Assembly (NCBI RefSeq): GCF_004010195.1
Contig: NC_057749.1
Location: 18,718,487-18,781,027, forward strand
DNA length: 62,541 bases
Source: Chiloscyllium plagiosum
Lineage: Eukaryota
Reading direction: 5' to 3'
In this document: piece by piece, positions 14,005 to 53,221 of the stretch
Numbering within the stretch: position 1 is the first letter of the stretch
Layout: each line of letters begins with the position of its first letter
Translations under genes and position numbers: made by a program
The notes under the pieces: generated by a model
What the model was told of the DNA's origin: nothing
Seen by the model: only the letters and a program-made list of their open reading frames with translations
Database searches by the model: none

Positions 14005-14833
14005 NNNNNNNNNNNNNNNNNNNNNNNNNNNNNNNNNNNNNNNNNNNNNNNNNNNNNNNNNNNNNNNNNNNNNNNNNNNNNNNNNNNNNNNNNNNNNNNN
14101 NNNNNNNNNNNNNNNNNNNNNNNNNNNNNNNNNNNNNNNNNNNNNNNNNNNNNNNNNNNNNNNNNNNNNNNNNNNNNNNNNNNNNNNNNNNNNNNNNNNN
14201 NNNNNNNNNNNNNNNNNNNNNNNNNNNNNNNNNNNNNNNNNNNNNNNNNNNNNNNNNNNNNNNNNNNNNNNNNNNNNNNNNNNNNNNNNNNNNNNNNNNN
14301 NNNNNNNNNNNNNNNNNNNNNNNNNNNNNNNNNNNNNNNNNNNNNNNNNNNNNNNNNNNNNNNNNNNNNNNNNNNNNNNNNNNNNNNNNNNNNNNNNNNN
14401 NNNNNNNNNNNNNNNNNNNNNNNNNNNNNNNNNNNNNNNNNNNNNNNNNNNNNNNNNNNNNNNNNNNNNNNNNNNNNNNNNNNNNNNNNNNNNNNNNNNN
14501 NNNNNNNNNNNNNNNNNNNNNNNNNNNNNNNNNNNNNNNNNNNNNNNNNNNNNNNNNNNNNNNNNNNNNNNNNNNNNNNNNNNNNNNNNNNNNNNNNNNN
14601 NNNNNNNNNNNNNNNNNNNNNNNNNNNNNNNNNNNNNNNNNNNNNNNNNNNNNNNNNNNNNNNNNNNNNNNNNNNNNNNNNNNNNNNNNNNNNNNNNNNN
14701 NNNNNNNNNNNNNNNNNNNNNNNNNNNNNNNNNNNNNNNNNNNNNNNNNNNNNNNNNNNNNNNNNNNNNNNNNNNNNNNNNNNNNNNNNNNNNNNNNNNN
14801 NNNNNNNNNNNNNNNNNNNNNNNNNNNNNNNNN
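14005..14833. other. Assembly gap (829 N)
   Basis: Run of n. Confidence 1.
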
Positions 14834-41800: not shown

Positions 41801-44800
41801 TGTACTGAGATCAGATCAATGTTCATCGTGTCTTTCACCAAGGATTGAGAGTTCAGACTTAATGAGGTGCTGTGATTGATAAGTTTTATGTTTTGTTTTA
41901 CGTGTCATTTATGCCATTGGGCTGAGAGGTTCATCCCAGTGTCTGCCCTTACTCTGCATGGAGCTGGAAACAAACATCAGCCCTCTGTCAGCTTCAGTAT
42001 TGCCCCTATCCATTGAGCTAGCTGGCTGAGCTACATTTAAAGAGAATTTTTTTTAAAATTGCCGAAGAAGTGATTACCAACTGAGGTTTGCTGTATGGAG
42101 GATGTGTGGAGGTGTAGATTTCTCACTGAGTCTGACAGTGTCTGGGAGCTGACTTCTGAAATGAAACTGTGGCAGGGCACTTCAAAAAAATGTGCAGTTA
42201 CTGAGATTTATCAATAGATTATAGAGTATCAAAACAAAGAAGTTGTAATGAACCTTTCATTGAATTCTGATTTGGTCTCCGTTGGAGTATTGTATCCAAT
42301 TCTTTTAGTTTGATTAGAGAAGTTAGGACTGTTCTCTTGAGAGAAGGGTAAAAGTTTACTTGACAGACATGCTGAAAATCATGTAGTGTCAACAAAGGAA
42401 GGAACCATTCCCCAATGGCAGGAAGATTGAGACTAGTGGTACCAATTTTGAAATGAATAGTAAACAAACTGAAGATGAGGGAAAAAAAAATTCTCCATGC
42501 TGAGTGGTTGGGATCTCGTGTGCAGACTTATAGAATCATACAGCATGGAAACAGCCCCTTCAGTCCAACTTGTCCATGCCAACCAAGTTTCCCAAACTAA
42601 ACTAGTCCCACCTGCCTGCATTTAGCCCTATCCCTCTAAACCTTTCCTATTCATATACCTGTTCAAACATGTTTTAAATGTTGTAATTGTACCTGCATCT
42701 GCTACTACATCTGGCAGTTCATTCCACACATGAACCACCTGTGGCGAAAGTTCCTCCTCCTATCCCTTTTCAAATCTTTCTCCTCTCATCTTAAAAATAT
42801 GCCTCCTAGTTTTGAACTTGCCCCACCCTAGGGAAAAGACATTTTTCTATTCCCCTTACCTTTGCCCCTCATGATTTTAAAAACATCTAAGAGGTCATCC
42901 CTTAACTTCCTCCCTTCCAGTGAAAAAAGTCCCAGCCTATGTTTCTAACTCAAACCTTCCACTCCTGGTAAATCTTTTCTGAAGCCTCCAATTTAATAAT
43001 ATCCTTCCAATAGCAGGGTGACCAGAACTGAATATGTACTCTGAAAGTAGTCTCTGTAACATCCTGTACAACCTCAACTTGATATCCAACTCTAGACTCG
43101 ATCTGACCAATGAAGGCAAGCGTGCTAAATGGCTTTTTAACCCCTTTGTCTACCTATGATGCAACTTGCAAAGATGTATGTATCTCAGCCCATAGGACTC
43201 TGTTTGACCATATTACCTAGGGCCCTACCATTAACTGTGTAAGACCTATCCTTGTTTGTTTTACCAAAATGCAATACCTTGCATTTACCCAAGTCCTTGA
43301 AGGGAAACACTTATGGGAAGGGTCAGAGCAGTGAGACTGGTTGGGTTGCTCTTGCATAATGGGCGGCACGGTAGCACAGTGGTTAGCACTGCTGCCTCAC
43401 AGCGCCAGAGACTCAGGTTCAATTCCCGCCTCAGGCGACTCTGGAGTTTGCACATTCTCCCCGTGTCTGCGTGGGTTTCCTCTCTCAATCCAAAAATGTG
43501 CAGGTTAGGTGAATTGGCCATTCTAAATTGCCCGTAGTGTTAGGTGAAGGGGTAAATGTAGGAGAATGGGTCTGGGTGGGTTATGCTTTGGCAGGTCGGT
43601 GTGGACTTGTTGGGCCGAAGGGCCTGTTCCCACACTGTAAGTAATCTAATCTAATAATGCCAGCATGAGCTCCACAGGCTGTATGGTTTCTTTCTGTGCT
43701 GTAACTATTCTATTCATCCCTACCTCCTTCATTTATCCCTGAATTCACATCACTAAAAAGGAACAGGTAATGTGATTGCTATCTCATTGGTGTTTGTGAG
43801 AGATTGCTGTGTTCAAATTGGCTTTTAATGTTTCCCACTTTAGAGCAATTAATTGGGACTTTTGGTAGTGTGTCTATGTCTGGGTCAGAAGGTAAAATTC
43901 AAATCTCACCTTTTTTAGAGGTGTGTCAAACACAAGTGAATAAGTCTATTAAAAGCTATCTACAGCAAATGATTAATTTTCATTAACCCAACACCCCCTG
44001 ATGCAATGTCATTGATTTGAAAGGCTTGTAATTGAGCTTTAAGAAGGTTATCCTTCTGAATTCTATTAACCTATTTGTTGCTGACTTTTGGCATTTCCTT
44101 CTCCAGATTACACCATATTGGACTGTATTTATAGTGAAGTGAACAGAACATACTTTGTTTTGGATGTGATGTGTTGGAGGGGTCACCCAGTCTATGATTG
44201 TCAGGTGTGTAAGATAGTAACATTTAAAAAACATCTTCTTTCCTACTGCTCCACTTATTCTGTATTATAATCATAGGACATGGGACATCATTAAGATGTT
44301 TCATCTACTTAACAAGCTCCATACAATGCGAGTCTTAAATAGGCTAACATATTAATAAAAAGAATAAAATCAAGTGTGTTTTCAATTTGGCAAGAACATT
44401 TTTTATTATTAACCATCAGCTTGATTTAGTTGTTAGCCTAATTTGAGTCAAAAGGTCATGATTAGATCCAAGCACAAAATATAGATGCATGGTGCAGTAT
44501 TGATTGAGTTGGAGGGACCATTAACATTGAATTTGAATCTCCGTCCGTCTGCTCAAGCAGCACAAAGTGTCCTGAGAATGGAGATGACTTATTGTATCCT
44601 GGACAACATCTGGTTATTTTGAGAAGCAGAAGGGTCACCTAGATATTTATTGCCTTGTTGTTTGGGAACCTTGACTTGTATAAGTTGGGTGCTATTTCAC
44701 CTACAATATAAAGGAATGCAGTTCATAATGTAATGCATTGTAAAGAACTTTGGTCGTGTCCTCAAGACATCACAGATGCTACAGTACTGAAAATTGTTTA

Positions 44801-47800
44801 ATTCCTTGAATGAGTTTGTAAATAATTATTTAGCAAATCATTTTTAATTACTTATATCTTTTTTTTAAAATATAGACAGAGTTCAGATTTTTCTGGCTTC
44901 AGTCAAAATTGGAAGAGGAAGGCAAGAAGCTGGCTGAGATAGTGTCTCGCAATCCGGTGAGTGCTTCCACGTTTTCTTATGGCAAGATTTGCGGATTCTA
45001 GTCCAAACGGATATTTATATTTGTAGGGATATCATTTATTATTATTAAATATGGCCTGAAGGGAAATCTGAAACCTAATGGAATAAGGGAAAGATAGATG
45101 GATATATTAATTGACGATTAATTTGGTGTGAATTGATTGTATAAATACGAGGAGGTAGTAATCAGTGGGCTAAGAATTTTGTCATAGAATTACAGAATTC
45201 TTACAGCGCAGACTGAGATAATTCAGCCCATTGTGAATGCACGGGTTCTGTCCCCTAGTACCAATCTCCTGCCTTTTCCCCATATTCCTGCATTTGATTT
45301 CTGTCAAAATAATCATCCAATGCCCTTCTTGAACACCTCAATTGAACTTGACACCTGTACATGTTTAGGCCATGCATTTCTTACCCTAACTACTCACTGT
45401 ATGAAAATGTATTTTTTCTCATGCCACTTTAAATTTATATCTTTTTTAAATATCGACCAAGTTCAGATTTTTCTGGCTTCAGTCAAAATTGGAAGAGGAA
45501 GGCGAGAAACTGGCTGAGATAGTGTCTCACAATCCAGTGATTCTTTTTTTTTCTTGTACTAGCATGAATAGCTTCTCCATATCTACTCTATCCAACCAGC
45601 TCAGAATTTAACTTCTATCAAGTCTCCTGTCAGCTGCCTTGTCTTGAAAGAGTACAGTCCCAATCTGTTCAATTCTCGTCATAACTGAAGTTTCTCATTT
45701 CTGGAACCATTCTTCTAAATCAATTCTGCACTCTCCAATGGATTTACATCTTTCCTATAATGTGGTGCCCACAACTGTACTCAACACTCCAGCTGAGGTC
45801 CAGCAGGGATCTCAAGTTCAATGTCACCACCCTGCTATTGTACTATATGCTTCTATTAATAAAGCTGAGAACACTTTGCATTATTAACTTCTCTCTCCGC
45901 CTGTCCTGCCACCTTCAATAATCAAGCACGTTGGCATTCAAGACCCTATCCTGTGCCCCCTTTAGCATTGTAGCTCTAGTTTATATTGTCTTTCAATGTT
46001 TTCCAACCTCTCCCTTCTCTGCATGGAACGTCATGTCACCTACCCAAACACTACACCAACTTATCAATGTCCTTATGGAGTGTGGTTAAGTGAAATAAAA
46101 CTCATTAAACATATGGATTTGAATTCTGCGTCAAAACGTGAAGTTTCTAGGTATGGCTACCCACTCCTGTTTTCTGAAAGTGAGGCTGATGACCAGTGGA
46201 GAAACGAATACCCATGCGGATCTTTATCTATGAATAAATAAATCATATTTTTAAATGTGATTGAGTAATCAGTTAGGGTGTGATTCATGGAGTATCGTTA
46301 ACTGAGCTAAAACACTCATTAAAAGTGTGGAATTGAAGTCTGTTCAAGAACAGTTATCGTTTAGTGTGTAATATAATTATTCACTTTAATCTGTCAATTT
46401 TCAGGTATTACAGGCATAGAACAGTACAGCACAGTACAGGCCCTTCCGCCGTCAATGTTGTGCTGACCTTTTCTCCTACATACCCTTCATTTTACTATCA
46501 TTCATGTGCCTATCCAAGAGTTGCTTAAATGTCCCTAATACATCTGACTCTACTACCACTGCTGAGCGTGCATTCCGTGCACCACCCACTCTGTGTGTAA
46601 GGAACCGACCTCTGACATCTCCCCTAAATCATCTGCTAATCACCTTTAAAGTTGTACTCCCTTGTGATAGCCATTTCTGCCCTAGGAAAAATAGACTATT
46701 CACTCTATCTATGCCTTTCATTATCTTGTACACCTCTATCAAGTCACCTCTCACCCTTCTTTGCTCCAATGAGAAAAAACCTAGCTCTCTCAACTTTTCT
46801 TCATAAGACATGCCCTCCAGTCCAGGCAGCATCCTGGTAAATCTCCTCTGCACCCACTCTGAAGTTTCCACAGCCTTCCTATGATGAGGCGACCAGAAGT
46901 GAACACAATATTCCAAGTGTGGTCTAACCAGGGCTCTTCAGAGCTGCAGCATAACCTCGCGGCTCTTAAACTCAATTCCCCTGTTCATGAAAGCCAACAC
47001 ACCATACGCCTTCTTAACAACCCTATCAACTTGGGTTGCAACTTTGAGGGATCTATGGACATGGACCCCAAGATCCCTCTGTTCCTCCACACTGCCAAGA
47101 ATCCCACCTTTAACCCCATATTCTGTATTCACATTCAACCTTCCAAAATGAACCACTTCACATTTTTTCCAGATTGAACTCCATCTGCCACTTATCAGCC
47201 CAATTCTGCATCCTGTCAATGTCCCGTTGCAACCTACAACGGCCCTCCACACTATCCACCACTCCACCAACCTTCATGTCATTGGTAAACTTACTAACCC
47301 ACCCTACCACTTCCTCATCCAAGTCATTTATGCAAATCACAAAGAGCAGAGGTCCCAGTACCAATCCCTGTGGAACACTACTGGTTACCGAGCTCCAGAC
47401 TGAATACTTTCCATCTACTACCACCACCCTGTGTCTTCTGTGGGTCAGCCAATTCTGTATCCAGACAGGCAGGTTTCCCTGAATCCCATTCCTCCTTACT
47501 TTCTGAATGAGCCTACCATGGGTAACCTTATCAAACACTTTGCATGTACACCAAGAAGGCTCTGCCGCCTTCAGCGTGTTTGTCATGATGCAAAGATCAC
47601 TGCCAAAGGCATAGCAATCTCTTCCCTCTCCTTATGTTTTTCAAAATTTTCAGTACATCCTCCTCCTCAACATCAACCTGTTCGAGCATATCAGCGTGTT
47701 TCACACTGCCCTCAGAAATGTCAAGGTCCCTCTCAGTTGTGAATACTGAAGCAAAGTATTCATTAAGGACTCCCCTACCTCCTCTCACTCCAGGCACAAG

Positions 47801-50800
47801 TTCCCTCCACTATCCCTGATTGGCCCTACCCTCACTCTGGCCATCCCCTTGTTCCTCACGTAAGTGTCAAATGCCTTAGGATCTTCCTTAATCCTGCTAA
47901 AGCTTTATCATGCCCCTTCTAGCTCTTCTAAGTCCATTCTTCAATTCCTTCCTGGCTACCTTGTAACCCTCTAAAGCCCTGTCTGATTATTGCCGCCTCA
48001 ACCTTAAGTAAGCTTCCTGCTTCCTCTTGACTAGATGTTCCACATCCCTTATCGTCCAAGGTTCCTTCACCCTATCATCCCTTCTTTGCCTCAGTGGGAC
48101 AAACCTATCTAGCACTAACAGCAAGTGCTCCCTAAACAACCTCTTCATTGCTGTTGTGCATTTCCCTGAGAACATCTTTTCCCAATTTAGGTGCCCCAGA
48201 TCCTGTAATAGCATTGTAACTCCCCCTCCCCCAATGAAATAATTCCCATACTGTCTGCTGCTATCCCTCTCCATGAGTATAGTAAAGGTCAGAGAGTTGT
48301 GATCACTGTCACCGAAATGCTCGTCCACTGAGAGATCTGACACCTAGCCAAGTTTGGTGCCAAGCACCAAATCCAATATGGTCTCCCCTATAGTCAGTCT
48401 ATCTGCACATTGAGTCAGGAATCCTTTCTGGACATACCTGACAAAAACTGCTCCATTCAAACAATTTGATTAGCAAAGCCATTCCTCCACCTCTTCTGCC
48501 TCTCTCCCTATTCCTTTTGAAACATCTAAACCCTGGAACATCCAACAAGCATTCCTGCTCCTGTGATATCCCAAGTCTGAAGTGGGCACAACATCGTAGC
48601 TCCAAGTGCTGATCCATGCTCGAAGTTAATTATTCTTATTCCTTCTTACTTGGGTTAAAATAGAGACACTTCAACCCATCACACTAACTGCAACATTGTT
48701 CATCAACTGTCTGTCCCGAATCACAGATTCTCTGCACACTGTATCTTGCTGTTCACTAGTTATTCCGTCTTCCGATCCATAGCAATGGTTCCCACCCCCC
48801 TGTCAAACTAATTTAAACCTTCCTGAAGGACTCTAGCAAACCTCTCGCCTAGGATATTGGTACCCCTCCAATTCAGGTGTAACCTGTCCTCCTTGTACAG
48901 GTCCCACCTTCCCCAGAAGGTATCCCACTAATCCACATATCTGAAGCCCTCCCTCCTACATTAGCCCTGCAGTCACGTGTTTATCTGCACTCACTCTCTG
49001 TTCCTCGCCTCACTAGCACATGGAGCTGGTAGCAGTCCTGAGATTGCTACTCTGCTCATCCTGCCTTTTAGCTTCCAAGCTAACTCCCTATATTCTCTCT
49101 TCAGGCCCTCATCCCTTTTTCCTAGCCATGTCGTTGGTGCCAATGTGTACCACAACTTCTGGCTGCAGCACACCTTCCTTATACACAGTGGCTCTGAATT
49201 TCAATTCAGCTTGATAGACTGGGATCAAAGTCTCTTTGTAAAAGATGACACCATGGGAATCCATCATATTAGACTGGCCATAAACCTGACCCAAACTTGT
49301 CAATACCCACATGGGTTGTAGGATAGTTAGTACTGAAATTGAAATGTCACTTTAATCAGATGCTGATTTACTTCTGTGTTGGGAGTTCAGAGAGAGCTTC
49401 AGTCCTGTGGCAAGCTGCATCTTAAATTTATTGCTAATGAAATTGTTGCTAATTTCTAGCACTGACATCCTTCATTTGACAAGCAGAGAATAATTTCCTT
49501 GTCAGCTGTGGAGCATCATCATTAAAAGTGTGACCAATTAAAATTAAATTCCATACCATATTTTACTTCCAAAGGAGCTGAAATAGAGAGGAGGAGTTTG
49601 ATTCAATTGTGCAGAGTCACAGGACGTGGGCATAACTGGTTAGGCCAGCATTTATTGGTCATTCCCTAATTGTCCTTGTTAGACCTCAGCTGGAATATTG
49701 TGTACAGTTATGGGCACCACATTATAAGAAAGATGTAAATGCATTGGAGACCCAATTGCTGTGGGTCTGGAGTCTCACAAAGGCAAGGCCAGGCCAGGCC
49801 AGGTGAGGTAAAGATGGCAGATTTCCTTCCCTAAAGAACATTAGTGGACCAGATGGATTTTTCCTGACAATCAGCAGTGTTTTCAGACTGTTAATTCCAG
49901 ATTTTTTAATTGAGTCCAATTTCCACCATCGCCATGGCGAGATTCAAACCCAGCCCCCAGATTATTACCGGTGCCTTTGGATTAATAGTCTAATCATAAT
50001 TCTAGGCCATTGCCTCTGATACCTACTTTGCAAGAGATTAAAGGGGACACAGTGTAGATTCACCAGTGACATGTAGACTTAAAAGAATAAATTAGGACTC
50101 TGGCAGGTTGCATGTTTAATTGATTTGATCTAATGAAGGTGTTTAAAATGTTGGAATTTAATATTTTGTGGTTTTGAAGCTTGAAAGTTCGTAGCAAATT
50201 ATCATAGCCAGCAGTCTTACCCTGGTACGCAACCAAAATACCGCAGAGGCTGAAAATCTGAAACGAGAACTGCAAGTGCTCAGCAGGTCAGGCAGCTTCA
50301 GTGGAGAGAGAAACAGAGTTAATATTTCGGGGCAGTGGTCTTTCACCAGAAATGAAAGAAGTTACTCATGTACTTCTGTTGGTTTCATTTTTATTTTAGT
50401 TCTGGCATAATATATCATATTTTCCTTAGGCAGTATGATTGGTAACTTGTGAAAGGAAGTGTCATTTTTACTGGGCATGTATTTGCTTTGAGGTGCACTT
50501 TACTAATATATTCAGAATTTGGGAGAAGATTTGTAGCTCGGGTGCTCGTTGTTGTGGTTCTGTTCGCCGAGCTGGGAATTTGTGTTGCAGACGTTTTGTC
50601 CCCAGTCTAGTTGACATCCTCAGTGCTTGGGAGCCTTGGCTCCCAAGCACTGAGGATGTCACCTAGACAGGGGACGAAACGTCTGCAACACAAATTTCCA
50701 GCTCTGCGAACAGAACCACAACAATATATTCAGACTCCTACTGTTCTATGCTAAACGTAAATGGGCCTCCTATTTGAACAAGGTGCTCTGTCTCATATAT

Positions 50801-53221
50801 GCAATTAGAAAGAACGTTTATAAAATCTTGAAGCAATACTAAAAAAGTGAACATGGAGACCTGTAAACATGGAACACAATTTTGATTTGAAAGGAAAACA
50901 GACTGGATGGTATTTTGGCCCAGTCCTGAACCTTTGTTATAACTCAGCTGGTTAGGCAGTGAAGCATCAAAGACTGAAACCTTGTTCTTCTAAACATACA
51001 ACTTTTACTTACATACAAGCATCTCGCTTACCATACACCTTGCATCAATTTTGCTGCTATTTTTATGCTTTTGGGTGCTCAAATGATCAGATTAACTAAT
51101 TAGAGGATCACCGAATTAACCCATTAGGGGCTGGTTCTTTAACAAAACCTAAATATTCAAAGGAAACTTAGAAAACTAAACTAAAATGTCATCCCTGGGG
51201 TTGATGCGCTCAGCCACTGCAGTGCCCATTGGTCATAGGAGGGTTCAAACATCCCATTGGACACTGCACGCTTCCTTTCCAGGGGCATTCGGAAGATGCC
51301 CTGTGTTAGAGCACAGATGAGCCCCCAGTTAATACTCACTACCTTAAAACTGTTTACAATAGCTGCTGTGAAGAAGTAAGGAAAAACGGATGAAGGCTGA
51401 TGTGTACTAAGTGAAAGGAAACGTAATGTTGGGACAGAAATTACAGTCTGCAGTTCCAAAATCAAGGTTGAATCCAGAAGCTATGAAGAGTCTAATTGTC
51501 AGTTTGAAGAACAGCACCTCATCTTTCAAGTGATTGATGTGAAATATTTGATGTATTTAAAGGGAGTCTAGATAACGTGAGGCAGAAGTAAGTAAAAGAT
51601 TAGGATAATGGGTGGGTGGGTGGCTGGATTCTTGAGTGGAACATGAACATTGGCATGCACTTGTTTGGGAACCAGGCTCCATTCATCATTTTTTTTAAAA
51701 GCTGTTTTTGGCCTGTAAGCCAGTAGTACATTTGGATTGTCAATACTGTTGAGAAGTACAAAGGTCAATCTCTCTCTTCTCTCCACAGTTTAAGTTTGTG
51801 GGCCTGCCAAGTTTGCCATGTACACCAGAAGCCATTTGCCAGACTTTGGCTGCAGTTTATCCATTTGAGGTAATTAAAACTGTTCTAAACATGTCTCTAC
51901 ATGTTTCATTCACTCTCCTCTACTCGGTTTTTCTCTAAGTAGCTAGTTCTTTCCCTAAAACACAGCAGATTATATTTTTCTATTACCTCCAATTAGAGTA
52001 ACATAGATTGCCGAATCTCAGTTGTGATTCCAAATGAGTTCATTGTTAGAAGTGTTATGATTCTCCTGTCATAAGGGAACTTTGATGTATGATAACTCCA
52101 TTTACCATATTCCAATACACTGGCTTTTCATTCCATTTTAATCTCTGCCATGGTTCACTGGGTTATCATTCTAGTCTGAGTTAAAAGCTTAAATGTTTAT
52201 GTCCCACTGCAAATGCTTGAGCAGAAAATTTGGGGTGGGGCTGGGGAGAAGATAGCTGAGAGTGCAATAGGTGGTTGGAGGTGGTGGTAAAGGTGATAGG
52301 TTGGAGAGGAGGGTGGAGTGGATAGGTGGGAAACCAGATTGACAGGTAGGACAAGTCATGAGGACAGTGGATGAGATGTTAAACTGAGACCTTGTTTGTC
52401 TCTTCTCCCTAGCCCCCACCACCACCACCCACCATACACCACCACCCACCAAACACCACTTTGAAGACGAGCAGTGGAATTATCTCCAGTACTCTGACCA
52501 ATGCATCTGTCGACCATGATCGCTAAAACAGATGACCTCGTCATTTTCACCTTATTGCTTGTGTTCCCTTCAACATAACAGTGATGAGGCTTGTTTAGCT
52601 GTGAAATGTTTAGGGAAAGATGCAATGTAAATACTATATATCTGTTTCCTTTTAACTTTTTTGTCTGATCTCTCCCTTTTGTTCCCTTGTCCTCATTTAC
52701 TCGTTCCCTTTTTGACACAATCTTGTCTGACACCAGACCCCTCTTTCTGTTTGCGTGCTCATTCAGTATTTTAATCATTTTAAGTGTAAAAGGAGTGTGT
52801 CAGGATGAATGTGTTTAAGAAACTGAGGTCCCATGTTAAGTTGGGTCCCCCTTCCTCTCCAGAATAGGTGTGTGATCTGAAATGTGCCTTGCAGGTGGAT
52901 GGGTTGCTGTTTTACCACAAGCAGACACACTACACCCCGGGGAGCACGCCGCTAGTTGGCTGGCTGAAACCGTACATGGTGGCTGACATCCTTGGATTGG
53001 CTGTCCCGGCCTGCCCTTTGTCCGTGAAGCCCGAATATGCCAACTCACAAATGCAACAGATAATCGAGCTGAAAAAGAGCAAGGCCGAGGGGTACAGCAC
53101 TAACCCGAGCAAGACGGAGACCGCTGGGTTGGGCCGATATGAATTGGAGCATCTCTCCACTCCCAAAAAAGCTGGATCATCGCCCTCTAAAATGGAATGC
53201 ACGAGTAAAATCAGAAGCTGA
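17648..53221 (+). CDS. SNUPN: Snurportin-1 (m3G-cap snRNP import adaptor), 8 coding exons, 1092 nt, 363 aa
   Basis: Exons 17648-17805, 19668-19812, 37244-37348, 38970-39066, 44107-44204, 44876-44956, 51789-51869 and 52895-53221 are all GT-AG with matching phases. N-terminal IBB region (MDELSQAL...HPRLAQYK...[14 protein letters not shown]); cap-binding Trp equivalents in LMLSEW and PLVGW. Confidence 0.98.
19668..19812 (+). CDS. SNUPN: SNUPN exon 3
   Basis: [19 protein letters not shown]...[10 protein letters not shown]|gttgga. Confidence 0.95.
19998..20186. mobile_element. Fold-back Penelope-like terminal element (family B)
   Basis: Inverted arms ~20032-20099 and ~20118-20186; TSD tacgtct(t/a)tataa at 19985-19997 and 20187-20199. 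Confidence 0.8.
20890..25120 (+). mobile_element. Near full-length degenerate CR1/HER1 LINE (esterase ORF1, APE, RT)
   Basis: IGDS motif ~21750, [28 protein letters not shown] ~24240, 3' tail ~25110; HE1 fragment nested at 23140-23345. Confidence 0.88.
25740..26056 (-). mobile_element. Young HE1-like V-SINE
   Basis: Complete head, V-domain and (agatt)n tail; CpGs retained; short TSD acaga. Confidence 0.92.
27060..27990 (+). mobile_element. CR1-type LINE 3' fragment
   Basis: [30 protein letters not shown]. Confidence 0.8.
28930..31850 (+). mobile_element. Degenerate CR1/HER1 LINE ORF2
   Basis: [28 protein letters not shown]; small Penelope-type insert at ~30905-31055. Confidence 0.85.
31935..32430 (-). 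mobile_element. CR1/HER1 3' end, antisense
   Basis: [19 protein letters not shown] on the minus strand; tail at ~31935. Confidence 0.8.
33643..34694 (+). mobile_element. Young 5'-truncated Penelope-like element
   Basis: ORF 33903-34433 ends in [26 protein letters not shown]; CpGs retained; intact hammerhead core at 34605-34632; 16-bp TSD atattgta(c/t)tgaatga at 33627-33642 and 34695-34710. Confidence 0.93.
34605..34632 (+). ncRNA. Minimal hammerhead ribozyme motif, sense to SNUPN
   Basis: CTGATGA-A-GGGC-TTTT-GCCC-GAAAC-GTC. Confidence 0.72.
35323..35350 (+). ncRNA. Minimal hammerhead ribozyme motif at the start of a solo Penelope terminal repeat (35322-35438)
   Basis: Core identical to 34605-34632; flanked by an aagaacct duplication. 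Confidence 0.72.
36570..36618 (+). mobile_element. 49-bp Penelope family-B terminal micro-insertion
   Basis: aaacctgttggactataacctggtg...tttttaac with a perfect 13-bp TSD cctgttttggaaa (36557-36569 and 36619-36631). Confidence 0.75.
37244..37348 (+). CDS. SNUPN: SNUPN exon 4
   Basis: cttgcag|[35 protein letters not shown]|gtaagt. Confidence 0.97.
38100..38830 (+). mobile_element. Old CR1/L2-type LINE 3' fragment
   Basis: Degenerate LGLFSLE..LRG.LIEVFKI and RGHSL remnant. Confidence 0.65.
38970..39066 (+). CDS. SNUPN: SNUPN exon 5
   Basis: ggtcag|[32 protein letters not shown]+G|gtaaac (not in the ORF track). Confidence 0.95.
40140..41415 (-). mobile_element. CR1/HER1 LINE fragment, antisense
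   Basis: [28 protein letters not shown]; tail at ~40140. Confidence 0.85.
42530..43290 (-). mobile_element. CR1/HER1 LINE 3' fragment, antisense
   Basis: Tail tagaatcatacagcatggaaac; LQKRFTR remnant. Confidence 0.8.
43361..43654 (+). mobile_element. HE1-like V-SINE
   Basis: gggcggcacggtagcacagtggttagc head, (aatct)n tail, TSD ataatg. Confidence 0.9.
44107..44204 (+). CDS. SNUPN: SNUPN exon 6
   Basis: ctccag|(D)[32 protein letters not shown]|gtgtgt. Confidence 0.97.
44876..44956 (+). CDS. SNUPN: SNUPN exon 7
   Basis: aatatag|[27 protein letters not shown]|gtgagt. Confidence 0.95.
45180..46075 (-). mobile_element. Old CR1/L2-type LINE 3' fragment interrupted by the exon 7 copy
   Basis: LINE-like sequence (atccaatgcccttcttgaa...; atctactctatcc...tcaagtctcct) continues on both sides of 45435-45545. 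Confidence 0.7.
45435..45542 (+). pseudogene. SNUPN: Duplicated copy of SNUPN exon 7 with splice flanks (pseudo-exon or possible alternative exon)
   Basis: 45456-45536 matches exon 7 at 75/81 nt and is an open frame ([27 protein letters not shown]); acceptor TAG changed to TCG; donor is GTGATT. Confidence 0.9.
46415..49170 (-). mobile_element. CR1/HER1 LINE with internal deletions, antisense
   Basis: VVVHIGTND (esterase), HFGDSDHN (APE), [13 protein letters not shown] (RT), EYCVHFWSP. Confidence 0.9.
49622..50015 (-). mobile_element. SINE-like repeat (related copies at 17032-17190 and ~6420-6595)
   Basis: ggcagatttccttccctaaagaacattagtg core recurs in the window. Confidence 0.6.
50518..50722. 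mobile_element. Fold-back Penelope-like terminal element (third family) with hammerheads on both strands
   Basis: Near-perfect palindrome ~50549-50724 centred at ~50636; TSD aatatattcaga at 50506-50517 and ~50723-50734. Confidence 0.85.
50647..50686 (+). ncRNA. Minimal hammerhead ribozyme motif
   Basis: gca-CTGAGGA-T-GTCACCT-agac-AGGGGAC-GAAAC-GTC-tgc: stem I gca/tgc, stem II, palindromic ACGT stem III. Confidence 0.75.
51789..51869 (+). CDS. SNUPN: SNUPN exon 8
   Basis: ctccacag|[27 protein letters not shown]|gtaatt. Confidence 0.95.
52895..53221 (+). CDS. SNUPN: SNUPN exon 9 (last coding exon)
   Basis: ttgcag|[28 protein letters not shown]...[10 protein letters not shown]...KIRS*. Confidence 0.97.

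Follow-up and report, generated by a model that had tools for sequence, protein, structure and literature searches.

The window, by which we mean the whole stretch of 62,541 nucleotides of Chiloscyllium plagiosum DNA that was analyzed (G000:C40:18,718,487-18,781,027), contains eight coding exons of SNUPN, as located by tblastn of the protein P0001. The same comparison gave a second match for exon 7 at 45456–45536, downstream of the exon itself (Table 1). Exon 7 encodes part of the cap-binding domain (residues 101–281). Exons 2–5, 8 and 9 matched the genome only once each, which rules out a whole-gene duplicate as the source of the second exon 7. A search of open-access full text found no paper on snurportin in sharks or on this locus, and the papers listed for a duplication of snurportin exon 7 were unrelated, as judged by title and the start of the abstract.

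Table 1. Features of the SNUPN exon 7 region and of related fragments elsewhere in the genome. Positions are those of the window unless a contig is named.
Feature	Position	Strand	Basis or remark
SNUPN exon 6	44107–44204	+	tblastn of P0001; donor CAG/GTGTGT
Template of the copy	44853–44960	+	live exon 7 plus intron edges
SNUPN exon 7, live	44876–44956	+	81 nt, phase 0/0; acceptor TAG, donor CCG/GTGAGT
Left part of host LINE fragment	45183–45438	−	outer end approximate; 83% to majority of 18 paralogs
5' microhomology TAT	45436–45438	+	present in both LINE and template; counting 45435, 4 nt
Templated insert, 101 nt	45439–45539	+	exon 7 with 17 nt of intron 6 before it and GTG of intron 7 after it
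Former acceptor, lost by TAG>TCG	45453–45455	+	splice-site comparison
Cryptic acceptors AAG (45459–45461) and CAG (45464–45466)	45459–45466	+	splice-site scan
Crippled donor CCA/GTGATT	45534–45542	+	no −1G, no +5G; A at +4 is microhomology; LINE from +5 onward
Right part of host LINE fragment	45540–45900	−	outer end approximate; 87% to paralog majority
SNUPN exon 8	51789–51869	+	tblastn, splice sites, RNA joint in run X3
L001:4596-5404	G000:C40:18,859,895-18,860,703	−	older copy of window ~44297–45080 (intron 6, exon 7, intron 7)
L002:3000-3135	G000:C5:105,869,699-834	−	136-nt spliced exon 6/exon 7 cDNA fragment; 2 differences from live gene

Alignment of 45435–45540 with 44852–44960 spanned 109 columns at 91% identity (E = 1.4e-36 within the window and 5e-34 within the genome). 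The exon parts, 44876–44956 and 45456–45536, start 580 nt apart and differ at 6 of 81 positions (45458, 45459, 45504, 45509, 45529 and 45536). Three of these differences are synonymous and three are non-synonymous, and there is neither a stop codon nor an indel, in agreement with the preliminary description of this DNA. The insert was identical to its template in 94 of 101 aligned columns, with 7 substitutions. Further, the comparison bore out the earlier claim that the acceptor had changed from TAG to TCG and that the first AG downstream of it is that of AAG. The copy is real. It is homologous to the neighboring exon 7, has the same phase and keeps an open frame, as tandem exons do.

The copy interrupts a LINE fragment in antisense orientation, as had been proposed, and both paralogs and protein similarity confirmed this. 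The right part of the fragment is what remains of the terminal portion of a reverse-transcriptase ORF (tblastn to a neighboring element, E = 1e-10, in which RVT_1 was found), and the host, similar to that element at the protein level, is a minus-strand remnant of a retroelement. We take the host to be CR1-like, presumably with a microsatellite motif as its 3' tail. Intron 7 also holds a long decayed antisense LINE at 46415–49300, with an RVT_1 remnant at 47158–47628.

A genome search with the LINE flanks gave 65 matches from the 40 scored of 5069 candidates, and many of the matches hit both flanks with the insert missing. None of the 18 paralogous sites compared carried the SNUPN insert; one had a deletion across the site and one had an unrelated insert. 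The paralog majority reads TAT (45436–45438), followed by about 8 bases that are missing from the window and then by ATT at 45540; about 8 LINE nucleotides were replaced by the insert. The microhomology at the 3' junction is a single A at donor +4, and one shared base may arise by chance. The empty site is itself deduced from paralogs that are about 85% alike, and alignments to individual paralogs were too noisy to confirm the breakpoints. There was no target-site duplication, in that no suffix/prefix repeat of 3 nt or more was found at the insert ends. The T-run that follows the copy is present in the paralogs and is LINE sequence, not a tail. Since the flanks resemble the paralog majority less closely (83% and 87%) than the insert resembles its template (93%), the LINE is older than the insert.

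These features bear on the class of the insertion. The spliced junctions, poly(A) tail and target-site duplication of a retrocopy or a LINE-mediated class 1 insertion were not seen, and the intron edges were kept. In contrast, an identifiable intact template, microhomology at the junctions and a small deletion without target-site duplication were all present, as in templated insertions. The earlier view that the copy is a templated insertion and not a processed retrocopy was thus supported.

We compared the splice signals of the copy with those of the live gene. The live exon 7 donor reads CCG/GTGAGT and that of the copy CCA/GTGATT; the breakpoint lies at donor +4, so that +5G was never copied. 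The copy had been described as carrying the donor GTGA, but only GTG(A) was copied and the donor is not intact. All 7 real SNUPN donors possess −1G or +5G, the copy donor possesses neither, and in a human sample only 6 of 1990 introns lacked both (PMC8283771). The U1 duplex energy of the copy donor was −1.7 kcal/mol, whereas the 7 real donors ranged from −5.7 to −10.5 kcal/mol; among 1962 decoy GT sites in introns, 62% paired to U1 as well or better. The register-fixed pair count of the copy was 15 (real range 14–21; 17% of decoys reach 15) and does not separate the copy from real donors; both scores are crude, and neither is MaxEntScan. With −1G, the copy donor would reach −5.4 kcal/mol, near the weakest real donor. 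A rescue donor nearby was ruled out, as none of the 18 GT sites ending at 45460–45797 paired better than −4.2 kcal/mol.

On the acceptor side, AAG is the first AG after a stretch of 93 nt free of AG and sits 11 nt beyond a shortened T-run of 6 nt. It would give a 75-nt in-frame exon without the initial T-E, and CAG, 5 nt later, would give a 70-nt exon that shifts the frame. Branch-point-like motifs (yTnAy) are present in the left part of the LINE at −38, −63 and −70 relative to the old acceptor, within an AG-free stretch of 87 nt. A tandem exon requires a usable acceptor and donor, and the copy, with TAG changed to TCG and a donor devoid of −1G and +5G, has neither.

We examined RNA evidence by aligning four runs to 44800–51900, a stretch that leaves exon 6 outside; run X3 was the sole informative run. 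Unique run pieces differed from the window by 0–1 letters (one piece had 23 gap letters), and the run organism is therefore this species or one very close to it. The kind of run X3 is not on record, and assembled contigs lose rare forms. The run nevertheless behaves as RNA: the joint 44956>51789, with GT..AG ends, had a depth of 267.5 compared with 13–24 for intron pieces, and no processed exon 7–8 copy was found in the genome. The copy was present in run X3 in one unspliced contig of 216 nt (45474–45689; depth 13.6), which ran through the donor into the LINE. Other intron pieces had depths of 24.3 and 13, and intron background fully accounts for the depth of the copy contig.

Junctions into 45462 or out of 45536 had been suggested as a check. 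No joint at the copy was present among the 15 listed of 553 in run X3, in which 44956>51789 was dominant, and, judged from the weakest support listed and from the depth of the contig, use of the copy can amount to no more than about 17–22%. Thus, the dominant mRNA skips the copy, and use above about a fifth is excluded in this one run, rare use being possible. Among the other runs, X5 covered the exon 7 bin at a depth of 1.33 and left the exon 8 bin uncovered (depth 0), no reads of X6 aligned (both are raw single-cell runs), and X7 contributed only a piece of the 5' flank. A run search with 77 nt of the copy (5 sampled words) listed no RNA run, which is no evidence either way. The copy contig of run X3 confirmed the 3' junction independently of the assembly, and its single difference from the window was a G at 45529 (40 of the 868 letter differences were listed). 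Because G is the base of the live exon, the R>H change is polymorphic. Accordingly, the three amino-acid changes described earlier are present in the window, but the one at 45529 is not fixed.

At the protein level, T202 was present in 86 of 88 aligned homologs and D or E at 203 in all 88, followed by an invariant F-R-F; the 75-nt exon would drop T202-E203. None of 215 proteins carried exon 7 twice, and none lacked T-E. The AlphaFold2 models had low confidence at the site (mean pLDDT 33.7 in one; 57.5 in the other, below 50 over residues 191–212). A short-protein search gave 1 distant match. Apart from these comparisons, in-frame skipping of exon 7 is seen in 13 of the 199 vertebrate SNUPN models that could be parsed, and several further models omit exon 8 (e.g., P0011).

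Two further fragments of exon 7 were found elsewhere in the genome. One (L001) is an inverted, frameshifted copy of about 800 nt with intron flanks, 96 kb downstream and 75% identical, and a repeat has inserted into it. This copy is situated after SNUPN and before a CRAL-TRIO exon at C40:19,006,452 (+), which, judging from synteny, we assume may belong to PTPN9. The other (L002) is spliced, has no poly(A) tail in its flank and is a recent RNA-templated insertion. Exon 7 therefore has three extra copies and exons 2–5, 8 and 9 have none, which may be chance.

These fragments indicate the direction of some of the changes. Both L001 and L002 have C at exon position +3, and the A that creates an extra AG in the live exon is therefore most likely a recent gain there. 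The preliminary description had treated this AG at +3/4 as lost from the copy, a claim that was not borne out, and a coordinated loss of two AGs is ruled out. The change itself (44878–44879) is a synonymous ACC>ACA that places a second AG four bases past the acceptor of live exon 7 (TAG ACAG), a possible out-of-frame alternative acceptor. Of the changes on the side of the copy, three are CG>CA and one is polymorphic; at the −1 base, CG>CA assumes an ancestral G. Because L001 also has A at this base, the polarity at −1 is unsettled and the live exon may have gained its G. The probability that a splice site was hit by chance among five changes was 0.18, and selection against the splice sites is not required. 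The changes are too few for a test of purifying selection, and their pattern fits CpG decay. A mutation rate of 7e-10 per base per generation is given for the epaulette shark (PMC10587355); we assign no age to the copy, since two non-CpG changes cannot support one.

Related sharks provided a further comparison. All three annotated C. plagiosum isoforms and both C. punctatum models (a single RefSeq model and one from GenBank) use once the exon 7 that carries K-K. In the RefSeq annotation of Hemiscyllium ocellatum (the gene of XP_060709612.1 and XP_060709613.1), isoforms X1 and X2 with K-N and isoform X3 with E-K are placed on one contig; X2 (P0124) and X3 (P0123) have equal lengths and differ only at residues 218–219. 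The second exon 7 of Hemiscyllium X3 has the pattern T-E...E-K...R-N-P. E17 is common to Hemiscyllium X3, the copy in the window and most outgroup sharks (K in Rhincodon), and K17 belongs to the live Chiloscyllium exon. This shared E17 suggests that the copy arose before Chiloscyllium and Hemiscyllium split, and, as X3 starts with T-E, its acceptor would be at the original place. On the protein models, the copy thus probably predates the two genera, and the acceptor, the T-E start and R25 were probably kept in the epaulette shark. The proposed check in relatives turned up something unforeseen: a second exon 7 is annotated in the epaulette shark, but with the full length of 81 nt and not 75 nt. 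The peptides are identical at both ends and short junction reads can be misplaced, so Hemiscyllium X3 shows an intact copy more firmly than its use. This model nevertheless means that the copy may still be alive in some lineages.

We consider it probable that a microhomology-mediated repair patch duplicated exon 7, that the copy is a skipped, dead pseudo-exon in C. plagiosum, and that AAG is a cryptic site arisen by chance. A break or a stalled fork in the antisense LINE fragment resident in SNUPN intron 7 would have been repaired with about 101 nt copied from a template some 580 nt upstream. Copying would have been primed on the TAT microhomology within the pyrimidine tract of intron 6, continued through exon 7 and rejoined the LINE on the single A at donor +4, with the removal of about 8 LINE bases. 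At its birth, the patch would have possessed a whole exon, an acceptor and branch-point-like motifs supplied by the LINE, but a clipped donor without +5G. In C. plagiosum, neutral decay, largely by CpG changes together with TAG>TCG, would have followed, and the spliceosome would skip the copy. The junctions were directly seen; the enzyme, and whether the template was DNA or pre-mRNA, we infer.

Other explanations were weighed against this one. That the copy is an assembly artefact has next to no probability and is already largely refuted. The assembly is fragmented (101,977 contigs) and the 5' junction was absent from the listed independent contigs, but the copy differs from its template by 7 substitutions and in its flanks, a second exon 7 is annotated in another genus (Hemiscyllium), and an independent contig spans the 3' junction by 66 and 150 nt on either side, starting exactly at the first copy-specific 31-mer (45474). 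Very improbable in C. plagiosum is the 75-nt in-frame exon defined by AAG at 45461 and GT at 45537, added to exon 7 or replacing it. Against an open frame of phase 0/0, a leading AG with branch-point-like motifs upstream, the tolerance of SNUPN models for in-frame changes (such as the skipping of exon 7 in 13 of 199) and a loose RNA bound must be set the weak donor, the distance of AAG from the T-run and its rivalry with CAG, the loss of T202-E203 (seen in 0 of 215 proteins), the absence of the exon from all three annotated isoforms and the contig of run X3 that is unbroken through the donor. Given the donor, the T-E loss, the isoforms and the joining of exons 7 and 8 in run X3, the usable exon proposed in the preliminary description is unsupported. 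Its fallback, a dead pseudo-exon, agrees with the broken splice signals and with a dominant mRNA that skips the copy. It is rather unlikely, although we give the idea some weight, that the patch was copied by a LINE reverse transcriptase from SNUPN pre-mRNA and not from DNA. The distance to the template is just some 0.6 kb, the copy was not spliced and microhomology is present at both junctions; DNA template switching explains such features without RNA (PMC7454005; PMC8421209). Yet the insert is sense-oriented within a transcribed gene, an RNA template has been proposed for class 2 templated insertions (PMC5110952), and the spliced cDNA fragment on contig C5 indicates that SNUPN RNA was reverse-transcribed in this germ line.

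A reading that is compatible with the repair patch as the best explanation for C. plagiosum concerns the birth and death of a tandem exon, in which the patch became a mutually exclusive 81-nt exon that the epaulette shark continues to splice and that was silenced in the lineage of the bamboo shark. We regard it as conceivable but doubtful. Hemiscyllium X2 and X3 share their contig and their length and are distinguished only by K-N versus E-K; E17 is also found in the window copy and in most outgroup sharks, X3 begins with T-E, and the copy donor with −1G (−5.4 kcal/mol) would come close to the weakest real one (−5.7 kcal/mol). Reads or proteins placed on a near-identical exon can yield a gene model, and short junction reads or cross-species proteins placed on the copy could have created X3 without real splicing. 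Further, the second genomic exon of Hemiscyllium is deduced from two protein models, the swap alters two residues in a variable stretch, and in the C. punctatum models the K-K exon is the sole version. That the epaulette shark truly splices such a swapped exon 7 is, on these models, rather improbable. We also think it unlikely that the patch made a working exon in one step, bringing its own exon and acceptor while the LINE provided the branch point and completed the donor, an exon which the epaulette shark would still splice and in which the bamboo shark line would have lost both splice sites.

The copy is an ordinary repair patch, an instance of known templated insertions. As in MMB-TI/MMBIR events (PMC8421209) and polymerase-theta insertions (PMC7454005), it is a short copy from nearby with microhomology at both ends and a small deletion, and it is inherited through the germ line. 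Unlike classic MMB-TI, which is inverted, the SNUPN insert is direct; its 101 nt, which by chance hold a whole exon, exceed the 2–35 bp quoted for class switching. It also resembles the class 2 templated sequence insertion polymorphisms of Onozawa and Aplan (PMC5110952) in the lack of a target-site duplication, the microdeletion, the microhomology and the absence of a poly(A) tail in the direction of the copy. It differs from them in that its template is local and not distant, and in that it seems old and common to genera, not a presence/absence polymorphism.

As a homologous same-phase exon beside its parent, the copy is like the tandem duplicated exon substitutions, or mutually exclusive homologous exons (PMC9741552), and Hemiscyllium X3 is of this form. 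Most of those exons are ancient and strongly expressed, whereas the copy is young, its splice sites are broken in C. plagiosum and no use of it was seen. Since known tandem exon swaps are mostly ancient (PMC9741552), their origin is hard to see. If the epaulette shark splices the copy, this would be a mutually exclusive exon that could be followed fully from its birth to its loss in one lineage, and, if true, the shark pair would show the founding mutation, the contribution of the LINE and the loss. As it stands, the locus is a minor, well-resolved repair scar, and a warning that near-identical exon copies can give false isoforms in annotation. Intronic pseudo-exons are exon-like sequences with weak or partial splice signals that are normally skipped. 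The copy is like them, but is derived from a coding exon of the gene itself and not from a repeat.

Elsewhere in the window, an alternative acceptor 27 nt upstream of exon 9 (52868–52894) adds VCDLKCALQ and is annotated in the X1 isoforms of both Chiloscyllium and Hemiscyllium. C. plagiosum isoform X3 has an annotated alternative last exon on a CAC-rich repeat (52413–52526), which truncates the cap-binding domain. A run of 829 N lies upstream of the first coding exon (14005–14833). At 50549–50724 there is a palindromic, MITE-like element of 176 nt that is 93% self-complementary and, as indicated by read depth, has a very high copy number.
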